Below, one piece after another: positions 16,861 through 20,794 of a DNA stretch of 21,952 nucleotides. The DNA is from Promethearchaeia archaeon (GTDB lineage Archaea > Asgardarchaeota > Lokiarchaeia > Sigyniarchaeales > SOKP01), in assembly GCA_029856125.1 (NCBI GenBank), contig JAHQWJ010000118.1, positions 1-21,952 of the forward strand, given 5' to 3'. A program made the position numbers and the translations under genes. The notes beneath the pieces are model-generated. The model had not been told where the DNA came from, ran no database searches, and saw nothing but the letters and a program-made list of their open reading frames with translations. The first letter of the stretch is position 1; each line of letters opens with the position of its first letter.

Positions 16861-18108
16861 ATGGAACACGAAGATAAAATTTATAATATGTTAAAATGTG
16901 AACATTGTGGATATAATTTTGTAGCCCCTTATCAAAAAGATTGTGTCTGTAGAAATTGTAATCTTTTTTCGATCAAAATTTTTCGATTTATGTACGGAAA
17001 GTACAATCTATTTACTGAAGTAGGACCTAAAGCTCTTAAAATCGAATCGATAAAAAATATTAATAGAACAAAAAAGAAAAAGGTTCCAAAAATAGAACCT
17101 AAAGCTCTTAAAATCGAATCGTATAAAAATTTAAGTAGAACAGAAAAAAAAAAGATTCCCAAGAACCTATTTTTTTACGGAATTGTTTCAAAAGAGAGAA
17201 TTCCTATATATTATAACAATAGAAAATCTAAGTATATTTTAGAGTTAACAAATAATTTAGATTTTATTTCTAAGAGTATTTTATCTGGAACGCTTGACAA
17301 AATGTTGATAATTTTAGGAAACGAGGACGAAGGAGAAGAAAAAAAGTTAATCGCTCGTTTTTTTGAGAAAAATGGAGTTATACACATTCTCATAGGAAAT
17401 TTTTCAGATAAAGATAGCGATTGGATATTCAATCAAGTTTCATGGTTTTTCAATGATATGGTACATAAGGATAAAATTAATATTAAAAAATTGGCTAATA
17501 TTGATAAACGCCAGATGTCTATTAAAATAAATATATTTTTAGATTATATAGAAGAAGCAGTCAAATTAAAAGTCAAATTCGAGAAACCAAATTTTAATTA
17601 TATAGATAACTGGCTCAGATTAGACTATTTTGGAATATCATCTGAAACGGTTGGTGTTATTTCGCTTATGTTAGATAAAGAGGATGTTTTAAAATTTGAA
17701 AAGCAAAAACAATTTGAACTTGATTCTGAAAACAATATTTCTGAAGAAGAACGAGAGAAAAAAGAAATTGAAATTATTGATTATAGAGAAGCAGTCTTGA
17801 CTGCAAAAATTGAAGCAATTATAGCAATAATTCTTGGAAACATGAAGGGTTATCCAAGATGGATTTCAATAAAATCAGGTTTCCAAAAATATCGTTTTTT
17901 ATCGTTTAAAAAACTCGAAAATCGGTTCTTTTTATATTGTATTACAGAAGGAAATATTGAAAAACTAGAATCTTTGGAATCATCTCTTGATTTGCATTTA
18001 AAAGATGTAGTATCGAATAGATTTACTAGTTCACTAAAGATTTTTAATGAAATGAAAAATAAAATTCGAACCACTATAGAGACTATTCCAGAAAGAAAGC
18101 ATTATTAA
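16861..18108 (+). CDS. Hypothetical protein: N-terminal Zn ribbon, Lys-rich repeat linker, two putative longin-like domains
   Basis: CEHC...CVCRNC, a 24-aa tandem repeat, then two segments with a beta-beta-alpha-beta-beta-beta-alpha-alpha hydrophobicity pattern. The fold call is inference. Confidence 0.6.
   Translation: MEHEDKIYNMLKCEHCGYNFVAPYQKDCVCRNCNLFSIKIFRFMYGKYNLFTEVGPKALKIESIKNINRTKKKKVPKIEPKALKIESYKNLSRTEKKKIPKNLFFYGIVSKERIPIYYNNRKSKYILELTNNLDFISKSILSGTLDKMLIILGNEDEGEEKKLIARFFEKNGVIHILIGNFSDKDSDWIFNQVSWFFNDMVHKDKINIKKLANIDKRQMSIKINIFLDYIEEAVKLKVKFEKPNFNYIDNWLRLDYFGISSETVGVISLMLDKEDVLKFEKQKQFELDSENNISEEEREKKEIEIIDYREAVLTAKIEAIIAIILGNMKGYPRWISIKSGFQKYRFLSFKKLENRFFLYCITEGNIEKLESLESSLDLHLKDVVSNRFTSSLKIFNEMKNKIRTTIETIPERKHY
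17025..17163 (+). repeat. 72-bp in-frame tandem duplication (about 2 units)
   Basis: ACCTAAAGCTCTTAAAATCGAATCG (25 nt) is identical at 17025 and 17097. It encodes PKALKIESIKNINRTKKKKVPK and PKALKIESYKNLSRTEKKKIPK. Confidence 0.9.
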
Positions 18109-18126: not shown

Positions 18127-19305
18127 TCATCCTTTTATTCTTTGCCAATAAGAACTGATTTTAATATCGTCGATGTCATAAAATTGTATTTTTGAAGTCC
18201 AATTATAAGTTTTTAGCCACAATTTCCCAGGAAAAGGTTGCCAACCTTTGGTTGGTTGAATGCTAAACTCAATAGTATCTCCAGTACGAGTTAAATAATA
18301 TTCCCCGGCAAAAACTCCCTTTATTTCGTCAATTATGCAAGAAAATCTACCTTTTACTTTCAAATTACTTCTTAGAAATAATAAATTTGGAAGTGCGGGA
18401 GAAAATTCAAAAGAAACGGTATGGTTCTCTTCGTCTTTTCCAGAGATTTTTTCTATCTCGTAGTAATCATGGTTCTTTACAAGGCTAAATGTTATATTTT
18501 CATCAGATATATTTAGGGTTGGTGGATTTAGAATTATAGGATTTATGTTACCACTAAAATTATTATTCCAATTGCTGAATATTGGCTTTAAAGAATAGCG
18601 AGCTAAATAAACTTTCATTCCATTCAATCGAACAGGCATTTCTTTCGCTTCTCTTAAAAAACCATGAATCTTGACAAAAATTTCTGTGTTGTTTTTGATT
18701 ACCATACCGAACTTGTTGAGGAAAACGATGGGGAAATACTTCGGTTTCTTACTAACTTCACCAATAGGAGCTAAAATCGAAACCAATTCTCTCCCAGGGG
18801 TATTTTCTTTAATTTTAAATTCAATTTCTTTTTCTAACTTATCTTTTAAAAAGAGGTAAGCATCCAAGCCCATCTCATCAAATTGGAATTTATATTCAAT
18901 ATCTTCAAGCTGATTGAATGAGACATTTGTAAGTAAATCAGTGACCATCTTTTTTCTATTTTTTATAACAATCTCATTAGTGTAATAAATATCCTTCATG
19001 TTATCCTTTCGATACATGACTACAAGCGGGTATTCTTTGTCAATTTTGTGGAAAATTTGGAGTTCTATACTGTAATAAATAGGATCCTCTTCAAAATTAA
19101 CGATAAGTAATCGATCCATGGGATCAAAAATCATATTAAAAGGTGATAAAATCATGTTTCTTGGTGGGCGGTTGTAAATGTTGAGCGAATTTTCGCGTTT
19201 ACCAAGATACTTGTGGTGATCTATAAGAATATCTTGAAACTTTACGTTAGAGAACCTTAAGATAAATGAAGATAAATAATTCTTGATTCCCATATCTAAG
19301 CTCAC
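18127..19305 (-). CDS. Hypothetical protein (beta-rich, no recognised motif); start uncertain
   Basis: 392-codon ORF 9 nt downstream of cobO. The true start could be a later ATG. Confidence 0.7.
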   Translation of the reverse strand: MSLDMGIKNYLSSFILRFSNVKFQDILIDHHKYLGKRENSLNIYNRPPRNMILSPFNMIFDPMDRLLIVNFEEDPIYYSIELQIFHKIDKEYPLVVMYRKDNMKDIYYTNEIVIKNRKKMVTDLLTNVSFNQLEDIEYKFQFDEMGLDAYLFLKDKLEKEIEFKIKENTPGRELVSILAPIGEVSKKPKYFPIVFLNKFGMVIKNNTEIFVKIHGFLREAKEMPVRLNGMKVYLARYSLKPIFSNWNNNFSGNINPIILNPPTLNISDENITFSLVKNHDYYEIEKISGKDEENHTVSFEFSPALPNLLFLRSNLKVKGRFSCIIDEIKGVFAGEYYLTRTGDTIEFSIQPTKGWQPFPGKLWLKTYNWTSKIQFYDIDDIKISSYWQRIKG

Positions 19306-19314
19306 TATACCTCG

Positions 19315-19878
19315 TTAATGTTCTATACCAATCCGAGCTTTAATACCCTTTGAAGAATAGTAATGTTTGATCATTCTCATTTCAGTAAGCAAATCTGCTC
19401 GTTCCTTGATTTTTGGATGCATTTTAGGGCCGCCTGTTATAACTAGTTCGACTTTTTCTGGTTTATTGTCAATTAATTTTAATACATCGTCGATTTTTAC
19501 AATCCCATACTCAACGGCTACACCAATTTCATCAAGAATTACTATGTCATATTCATCGGACATAATTATTTTCTCGGCAAACTCCATGCCTTTCCTTCCT
19601 TCTTCGAAATCAATATCTCCAGGAGTTGCTATTAAATCTGGCGTGCCAAACTGTTTCAGTTCGAAGTTAGGCGTCTTTTCTATCGCTTTTACTTCCCCAT
19701 ATTGAGGATATCCCTTCATGAATTGAATCATATATACCTTAAATCCATGCCCTGTAGCTCGAAAACCTTGTCCTAAGGCTGCAGTGGTCTTACCTATAGG
19801 CATTACTATCATCTATATAGTACTTTTACCCCGACCAAAATAAACTTGCACTAGCCCTTGTTTTAATCTTTTTCTAAT
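19315..19878 (-). CDS. cobO: ATP:cob(I)alamin adenosyltransferase CobO/BtuR/CobA, split gene: exon 1 19878-19826, exon 2 19795-19315; 177 aa after splicing, proposed ATT start
   Basis: The joined product MRKRLKQGLVQVYFGRGKGKTTAALGQGFRATGHG...IQFMKG...VILDEI...ELVITG...ADLLTEMRMIKHYY..GIKARIGIEH has all the BtuR-family motifs. The ORF track captures only the part after the in-frame TAG. Confidence 0.88.
19796..19825 (-). other. Putative 30-nt bulge-helix-bulge/loop (tRNA-type) intron in cobO mRNA
   Basis: The insertion AAGUACUAUAUAGAUGAUAGUAAUGCCUAU has an in-frame UAG. A central helix GGGU/GCCU has a 3-nt segment (AAA, AUA) after each strand, with an intron stem UACUAU/AUAGUA and an exon stem UGGUC/GACCA. 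Cutting after the 2nd nt of each 3-nt segment restores GGU AAA GGU AAG ACC ACU. Confidence 0.75.
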
Positions 19879-19886
19879 GATAAATT

Positions 19887-19891
19887 ACCTC
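19887..19891 (-). promoter_or_regulatory. Shine-Dalgarno GAGGT for cobO
   Basis: GAGGT-AATTTATC-ATT on the minus strand. Confidence 0.6.
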
Positions 19892-20029
19892 TAAGCTTAC
19901 TATATTATGATGTAATACTTGGTCAATTAAAAACCATCATAATAAATCTATTCGAAAATTAATATTTATAAGAAGTATGGTTCAATAAATATTAGAAGTT
20001 ACAATGAAAACTTATGCGTAGTGTTAAGT

Positions 20030-20794
20030 ATGAGTAAATACAAAGAATTAGATGAAAAACTAAATAAATATCTTCGGTTAGCCACTTTCCCCGTCGCTGT
20101 AAAATTATTACGGAATCCCGAAGAATTAAATGACATCAAATTTTTAAAAAAAACGGAAAAGAAAGTTGCACTTTGTCAAATATTCAGCTATGCCAGATAT
20201 TATGGATGGACAATGGGCTGTGAAAAGGAGGATAATTTATGCCCCTTAGCTGAAATTTCTCTTGGATTTGAAAAATCGCATAAACTTTTCGAAGAAGGAG
20301 CTTTTTTCGTGGGACGATACAATGAAACAAAAGAAGCTGCCAAAAAAACTACAGCTACAATGCCAAAATTACCATTCGGACAATATAACGCTATTGTTTC
20401 TGGTGCTTTAAGCCGAATTGATTTTCAACCTGATTTAATCTTAATTTGGGGTAATTCTGCTCAGATTATGAGAATAATTCAAGGTTCTTTATGGAAAAGA
20501 GGAGGGAGAATTTCAATGTCAACTTTTTGCGATGGAGTTTGTGCCGATACTATTTCAAATGCTATTCTTACAGGTGAACTACAAGTTGCGTTTCCATGTC
20601 TTGGCGATCGGCGTTTTGGTATGGCAACTGATACGGATTTAATTGCCTCAATACCTATTGGAATTGTTGACGAAATAATAGAAGGTATGGAAAAGACTCA
20701 TAGAGCTGGAACTAGGTATCCCATTCCATATCAAATATCAACCCCCGAATTCTTCGTAAAATTAAAGAAGCAATTAGAAAAAGCAAAAAGATAA
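20030..20794 (+). CDS. DUF169 (ArCR/COG2043) family protein; start ATG 20030 or GTG 20021
   Basis: PVAVKL, LCQ...AR, DNLC...LG, PDLILI.GN..QIMR, GVCAD and PCLGDRRF match the DUF169 Cys pattern. Confidence 0.85.
   Translation: MSKYKELDEKLNKYLRLATFPVAVKLLRNPEELNDIKFLKKTEKKVALCQIFSYARYYGWTMGCEKEDNLCPLAEISLGFEKSHKLFEEGAFFVGRYNETKEAAKKTTATMPKLPFGQYNAIVSGALSRIDFQPDLILIWGNSAQIMRIIQGSLWKRGGRISMSTFCDGVCADTISNAILTGELQVAFPCLGDRRFGMATDTDLIASIPIGIVDEIIEGMEKTHRAGTRYPIPYQISTPEFFVKLKKQLEKAKR

Follow-up and report, generated by a model that had tools for sequence, protein, structure and literature searches.

A candidate tRNA endonuclease-type intron in the P-loop of cobO from a lokiarchaeal genome

The 21,952-nucleotide (nt) contig JAHQWJ010000118.1 of a Promethearchaeia archaeon, analyzed here over its whole length (the window; contig C118 of a genome, G000, of 3.69 Mb that is 99% complete), carries on its minus strand a cobO gene for a CobA/CobO/BtuR-type ATP:corrinoid adenosyltransferase. 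The conserved P-loop motif of this protein, GxGKGKTT, is broken by a short insert containing a stop codon, which raises the question of how, if at all, an intact enzyme is made from this locus. A preliminary description of the sequence had proposed that the insert is an intron of the type that the splicing endonuclease EndA removes from tRNA, and that its removal might regulate adenosylcobalamin synthesis. As argued below from sequence comparison, the insert is best read as a short archaeal endonuclease-type intron with a relaxed bulge-helix-bulge (BHB) motif of the HBh' class, very probably spliced from the mRNA, and we put the probability of this reading at roughly 0.9.

The insert is 30 nt long (19825-19796, minus strand) and splits the first Lys codon of the motif. 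Exon 1 (19826-19881), which has 18 codons plus 2 nt, encodes a segment ending in VQVYFGRG-K and closes with GGT CGG GGT AA, its last base being 19826. Exon 2 (19315-19795) begins with A GGT AAG ACC and reads GKTTAALGQG onward to a TAA stop at 19315. Unspliced, the reading frame ends at an in-frame TAG inside the insert (19815-19813). The coordinates given earlier for the insert, the TAG, and the flanks are all correct, as is the claim that only two equivalent registers exist, since 0 and +1 alone, out of nine tested, restore YFGRGKGKTT. Joining the exons without the insert yields a 178-amino acid (aa) frame with 0 internal stops. The match to Pfam family PF02572 runs across the insert site (positions 1-171 of 172, with one TAG inside) and exon 2 matches with E = 3.9e-48, but a full-length PF02572 protein with a GxGKGKTT P-loop is predicted only once the intron is removed. 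The protein of an intronless sister matches the solved CobA structures 1G5R and 4HUT, with E about 5e-21. No ATG is found at the start of cobO, which we place at ATC 19881 or ATT 19878, behind a Shine-Dalgarno-like GAGGT (19887-19891, minus strand) that is kept in L003, L004, L006, L007, L008, and L010. A start region without ATG is common to intronless sisters, L006 and L007 carry ATG at the 19878 position, and NCBI annotates intronless sisters as 178-aa proteins beginning MIRKRL (P0163 and P0165). As a result of the apparent ATC or ATT start, which is shared by several sister species, gene callers choose an internal GTG (168 aa) even in intronless genes.

Comparison with relatives shows that the site is conserved and the presence of the insert patchy. 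Among 145 distinct related cobO loci, the insert is present at exactly the same site in 34 and precisely absent in 111. Inserts of 29, 30, 31, 32, and 33 nt are found, so all three frames occur, with both flanks intact, and without splicing, a frameshift or a stop disrupts the gene in every intron-bearing locus listed. An in-frame stop is present in 14 of 14 distinct introns whose length is a multiple of three, against about 0.49 expected for each (these introns are not independent), possibly a sign that full-length proteins whose P-loop is broken are selected against. In a species-level survey, in which inspection was confined to matches flagged for stops, a short span, or a low score (8 were unlisted), the insert was found in at least 20 species-level genomes from four genera of the window's own family, in which 112 genomes have a cobO match; among the matches listed, it was not seen in 20 cobO-matching genomes of the other families of the class. 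On a gene tree inferred from the part of exon 2 distant from the junction, presence or absence changes at least 17 times, 13 of these changes being forced by well-supported branches, and the counts cannot separate gain from loss. Relatives with 92-95% nucleotide identity lack the intron precisely. Finally, contigs of seven sequencing runs from two studies, three of which possibly derive from the source sample, contain 0.85-1.00 of the sequence words of the region. Because these contigs hold the region and 33 other distinct loci carry the insert, misassembly, a concern raised in the preliminary description, is very unlikely as its origin.

A recombinant-like cobO allele was found in two assemblies (L326 and L327). 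Upstream, it is nearly identical to the intronless L322, and from 30 nt before the junction onward it is identical to the intron-bearing L323. Unless L326 and L327 are both chimeric, the pattern points to homologous recombination as the way in which intron-bearing segments move. Three intronless contigs that fall in intron-bearing protein clusters (L318, L322, and L329) were considered as possible cDNAs, an idea that was rejected because they span neighboring or divergent genes and display many synonymous differences; they represent DNA alleles without the intron. A search of this genome at up to 7 mismatches revealed no donor copy for the intron in cobO, the sole match being coding sequence that looks like chance. 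A different kind of interruption is seen in two cobO homologues of another family (L332 in G042 and L333 in G049), where IQFLK is followed by a long protein insertion that stays in frame and is not an intron.

The structure expected of an EndA substrate is supported by covariation across these relatives, a comparison suggested in the preliminary description. As assessed on 28 aligned junctions, a structure consisting of a 4-bp helix, a 3-nt bulge, and an 8-bp intron stem is paired in 96% of the cells, whereas slid controls are only 31-59% paired. The central helix H, formed by the exon strand GGGU (19828-19831) and the intron strand GCCU (19798-19801), is 99.1% paired in the 28 sequences and has four of four pairs in 33 of the 34 loci; in L168, a G to A change in the intron strand opposite U keeps the pair. 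The intron hairpin h' (19802-19824), in which 19824-19817 pairs with 19809-19802 around a 7-nt loop, is 94.6% paired, with changes on both sides in five of its eight pairs (21 cells), and the single G.A mismatch seen here is U-A, C-G, U-G, or A-U in other loci. Helix H is flanked by a 5' bulge AAA (19825-19827) and a 3' bulge or open loop AUA (19795-19797), each with a predicted cut after its second base, i.e. between 19826 and 19825 and between 19796 and 19795. A test for the HBh' motif was passed by 33 of 34 loci, versus a mean of 0.5% of shuffled inserts. The original description thus holds for the helix strands, the two bulge segments (AAA and AUA), the A-U pair, the G.A mismatch, and the 6-bp stem.

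The register of cutting is set by natural variation. In three loci (L108, L334, and L335) the insert begins with T and a cut one base later would produce Asn, so only a cut after AA of the codon AAR gives Lys. The first base of exon 2 is only ever A or G, as expected for a Lys wobble position, and the preceding base is free (T, C, G, or A). Cutting after the second base restores GxGKGKTT in 30 of the 30 loci listed, and L108 excludes the other register. The inserts, with only 29-33 nt and ends AA...AN (TA...AG in L108), are not self-splicing group I or II introns or spliceosomal introns, which have a catalytic core of hundreds of bases or GU-AG ends. The same cutting rule fits the intron borders assigned in crenarchaeal cbf5, which were confirmed by cDNA (PMC2738675).

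Both exons are under purifying selection. The median ratio of non-synonymous to synonymous substitution rates (dN/dS) for exon 2 is 0.075 in intron-bearing pairs versus 0.074 in intronless pairs, and exon 1 keeps VQVYFGRGK, with 144 synonymous versus 14 non-synonymous summed pairwise differences. The relaxed selection that would point to a simple pseudogene was therefore not found. In addition, the exon bases within helix H are constrained only where the intron is present. The third position of the Arg codon is restricted to A or G in 34/34 intron-bearing versus 81/111 intronless loci, that of the Gly codon to T or C in 34/34 versus 77/111, and third-position divergence at the junction codons is 0.11, versus 0.47 at matched distance. 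Only one copy of cobO was found in this 99% complete genome, a PduO-type gene has no match in it, and three to four matches to the methylmalonyl-CoA mutase family suggest a need for adenosylcobalamin.

The genome also encodes two EndA paralogues (PF01974), on contigs C135 and C56, and one RtcB, on C63. The closest solved relatives of the catalytic EndA subunit, that on C135, are 3P1Z and 3AJV, structures of the Aeropyrum pernix enzyme. The alignment to these structures is gapless over the N-terminal loop, including the lysine equivalent to K44 and the Tyr/His/Lys catalytic positions. An (alpha-beta)2 EndA with an L1 loop has been reported in Asgard archaea, the lysine has been tied to broad specificity, and HBh' motifs need an EndA of broad specificity (PMC5829648). 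Judging from its gene content, the host thus has RtcB and probably an EndA able to cut relaxed motifs, namely an (alpha-beta)2 enzyme with the CSL/L1 lysine. From these features we infer the following pathway. In the transcript, exon GGGU would pair with intron GCCU, stacked on the intron hairpin; EndA would cleave the AAA bulge and the AUA segment, each 3' of its second base; and RtcB would ligate the exons, restoring the Lys codon and a 178-aa adenosyltransferase that would supply adenosylcobalamin to the methylmalonyl-CoA-mutase-family enzymes of this genome. On mRNA left unspliced, translation would stop four codons into the insert. Intron loss from cobO would be precise, and transfer between strains would occur by homologous recombination.

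Several observations weigh against this reading. The exon-side helix UGGUC/GACCA that had been proposed does not hold up, because it is 83% paired with no double-sided change and its C-G pair is broken in 12 of 28 sequences, and an exon-side helix closing the 3' bulge, a feature of the strict hBHBh' motif, is formed in 0 of 34 loci. The motif is therefore best classed as HBh' rather than strict hBHBh', and the 3' cut would depend on relaxed recognition; HBh' was scored as canonical in a 2026 census of Asgard tRNA introns (bioRxiv 10.64898/2026.10.13.758758). The single-sequence fold of this insert is no better than chance (z = -0.47), so structural support rests on the comparison across relatives. 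For this sequence, the exact bulge conformer has an energy of -4.9 kcal/mol, compared with -6.8 for a slid conformer and -9.6 for the minimum free energy structure, and RNAalifold favors the slid register in which the first A is paired (A-U); the cleavable conformer is probably selected by the enzyme. Because the related loci are not independent, their counts overstate significance, and no p-values are given. Spliced RNA is not among the contigs of four RNA-labelled runs (X17-X20, of which X17 and X19 are probably DNA). Each has one short contig, all within 19305-19707 and none over 19710-20050, where the junction lies, and stopping short of it they have no bearing for or against the predicted splicing. 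The final point, the frequent presence of a start codon within the insert, is taken up below with the alternative that it favors.

Granted that the intron is spliced, its removal could be a regulated switch for adenosylcobalamin, as the preliminary description had suggested by analogy with HAC1/XBP1. In HAC1/XBP1, a non-spliceosomal mRNA intron is removed by IRE1 and the exons are ligated by a tRNA ligase (Trl1 or RtcB). The cobO intron would share with this system non-spliceosomal excision from an mRNA and joining by a tRNA ligase. However, IRE1 acts on two stem-loops and is regulated by stress, whereas EndA is predicted to act here on a bulge-helix motif, and regulation is unsupported. A switch would fit the relaxed motif with its competing slid conformer and the in-frame stop in all 14 distinct introns mentioned above, and a role as negative regulator has been proposed for the cbf5 intron (PMC2738675). 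Nevertheless, the absence of the intron from 111 of 145 loci, including sisters with 92-95% identity, the 17 or more gains or losses, the freely varying length and sequence of the intron loop, and the equally patchy occurrence of similar introns in unrelated genes (see below) make this elaboration of the splicing model unlikely. We consider the intron most likely to be a passenger that is tolerated and not a regulator, a view favored by its precise absence in close sisters and by the recombinant allele. It would persist because any loss from the P-loop codons that is not exact would inactivate the gene.

Alternatively, the RNA might not be spliced at all, with translation starting or restarting at an AUG or GUG within the insert to produce the MPIGKTT protein of 162-165 aa found in gene-caller annotations. 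Three codons before GKT, an in-frame ATG, GTG, or TTG is indeed present in 29 of the 30 intron-bearing loci examined, and public databases hold many 162-165-aa calls (e.g. TKJ20610.1, NHJ19460.1, and NVM43331.1). The TG of this start is, however, accounted for by pairing, its U with the A after the bulge and its G with the Gly wobble base, and L168 changes TG to TA, which keeps the pair and loses the start codon. Moreover, the product would be missing two elements present in CobA, its first strand and the GxG portion of its P-loop, and purifying selection on exon 1 is unexpected of a skipped segment. We regard this explanation as very unlikely. A little less credible again is ribosomal bypass (hopping), or read-through of the stop, over a hairpin in uncut RNA. 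The stop at the top of the hairpin and the Lys-like AAA/AAR take-off and landing codons bear a loose likeness to the bypass in T4 gene 60, but the take-off codon in L108, L334, and L335 would be AAT, which is not Lys, the length of the insert varies between 29 and 33 nt, and the conserved part is a 4-bp helix with 3-nt offsets, i.e. the geometry of EndA substrates. Read-through would place ten extra residues in the P-loop, and alleles whose length is not a multiple of three would be unworkable.

The least credible alternative, that cobO is a pseudogene created by a hairpin insertion or that the insert is an assembly artefact, could appeal to the missing ATG and to nonsense-broken cobO copies in relatives, but is already largely refuted by the sharing of the non-ATG start with intronless sisters, the unchanged dN/dS, the occurrence of the insert at one site in 20 species-level genomes of four genera, its compensatory changes, and the presence of the region in independent sequencing studies. 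The nonsense-broken copies (L336 in G074, and L330, a paralogue in G089) are without any insert, in contrast to the intron alleles.

If EndA splices this mRNA, further introns of the kind might be hidden in other genes, as the preliminary description had anticipated. They were sought in a census by homology only, the motif being tested afterwards. Between this genome and 1.15 Mb of G017, which belongs to the same genus, four inserts of 30-33 nt that lie within genes and break the frame fit the motif, one in a uvrA-like gene here and three in G017 genes. Of nine frame-breaking rows (16-57 nt), five do not fit and are apparently misaligned segments of open reading frames (ORFs) that are short, terminal, or of low complexity; none of 14 open in-frame indels and no antisense control fits. 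The uvrA-like gene (G000:C149 near 3303, minus strand) is broken beside a zinc-binding CxxC by a 31-nt strict motif that is absent in G017. In EF-1alpha of G017 (L317; G017:C11:166081-167400, minus strand), the P-loop GHIDHGKS is split by a 33-nt HBh' insert containing TAG and TAA. This is the only EF-1alpha in G017 over the family cut-off, and the gene is intact in this genome and in G007. The other two G017 inserts (30 and 33 nt; G017:C17 near 377453, minus strand, and near 23475, plus strand) are found in G017 only, in genes that encode about 583 and 424 aa in this genome. In this genome, aIF2-gamma (G000:C136 near 18998, plus strand) carries a frameshifting insert of 29 nt with a strict hBHBh' motif, which divides a Lys codon into A and AG just where the EF-1alpha insert of G017 does. 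Both inserts start with TGA(A)TTAG, perhaps because the exon context is shared or because of a transfer from one paralogous P-loop to another. In the comparison with 1.06 Mb of G007, the sole frame-breaking coding insert is that of cobO, and two 30-nt motif-positive inserts occur in tRNA T-arm-like sequence of G007 (L207 and L228), absent at C26:1962 and C84:116470 of this genome. The expectation of further introns is thus supported. Since translation factors are not plausible as pseudogenes, they provide the strongest indirect argument for the removal of such inserts in this genus. A homology-free genome scan combining motif and coding score was discarded because it returned 4889 candidates with true and 4934 with mirror geometry, and a scan of this genome for a T-arm tRNA intron pattern returned spurious matches only. 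The ARAGORN output for this genome, although the latter is 99% complete, has only about 18 tRNA lines, which suggests that many tRNA genes are interrupted or unassembled.

The immediate neighborhood of cobO contains two ORFs with no Pfam match. One (392 aa; 18127-19305, minus strand) begins 9 nt after the cobO stop, and a 386-aa unannotated gene likewise follows cobO in L318 and L329. The other (415 aa; 16861-18108, plus strand) lies in the part of the window with the lowest GC content (26-28%). A sigma-70 promoter scan, with a model unsuited to archaea, was at chance level.

The closest known system is the cbf5 pre-mRNA intron of Desulfurococcales and Sulfolobales (Watanabe 2002; Yoshinari 2006; Yokobori 2009, PMC2738675). 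Both introns are short, lie within coding sequence, split a codon of a critical motif, have an unconventional BHB motif with cuts between the second and third bulge bases, occur in hosts with a hetero-oligomeric EndA, and are patchily distributed with losses. They differ in gene (metabolic cobO rather than an RNA-modifying enzyme), in lineage (Asgard, Promethearchaeota), and in that the cobO intron is one of several such mRNA introns per lineage; in addition, cbf5 splicing was demonstrated by cDNA, whereas the cobO intron is known from sequence comparison. The cbf5 gene of this genome is uninterrupted, with an open frame of 355 aa and no stop inside. The cobO intron, which displays every EndA-type feature that a sequence can reveal bar the exon-side helix, would work like its crenarchaeal counterpart, but is not orthologous to it, the latter interrupting the codon for the catalytic Asp of cbf5. 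Non-canonical tRNA introns of the HBh' class in Asgard and TACK archaea (Marck and Grosjean classes; bioRxiv 10.64898/2026.10.13.758758; PMC5829648) are also about 30 nt long, with four central pairs, an intron-side helix, and repeated gain and loss, the difference being that the host of the cobO intron is an mRNA. The main text of the 2026 preprint contains neither "mRNA" nor "cbf5" (bioRxiv 10.64898/2026.10.13.758758). In Haloferax volcanii, EndA likewise acts on an mRNA through BHB sites, but the HVO_1309 intron sits in the 5' untranslated region (UTR) of a gene from a different phylum and breaks no reading frame (PMC7714728). By the account of that 2020 paper, which adds one case in a 5' UTR, cbf5 was the sole mRNA example known before (PMC7714728). 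Papers that we searched thus report cbf5 as the only archaeal coding-sequence intron of the EndA kind, plus one 5' UTR intron, and no report of mRNA introns in Promethearchaeota was found in this literature, which mostly does not cover subscription journals.

Taken together, these findings make it likely that in this Loki-type family the tRNA-splicing machinery routinely splices mRNAs, and that cobO is one member of a set of introns of about 30 nt, with HBh' or BHB motifs, that lie in conserved motifs of many unrelated genes, some of them essential, vary between sister species, and move by recombination. Such genes are now annotated as N-terminally truncated proteins, TKJ20610.1, NHJ19460.1, and NVM43331.1 among them, and are thus missed or wrongly modeled when the metabolism and phylogenomics of Lokiarchaeia are reconstructed. 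If cobO, EF-1alpha, aIF2-gamma, and uvrA need splicing by EndA and RtcB, mRNA splicing would be routine in an Asgard lineage. It would represent a spliceosome-free population of prokaryotic mRNA introns in close relatives of eukaryotes, provide a prokaryotic setting in which intron gain, precise loss, and lateral spread can be tested, and bear on the origin of genes in pieces and of RtcB-dependent mRNA ligation.
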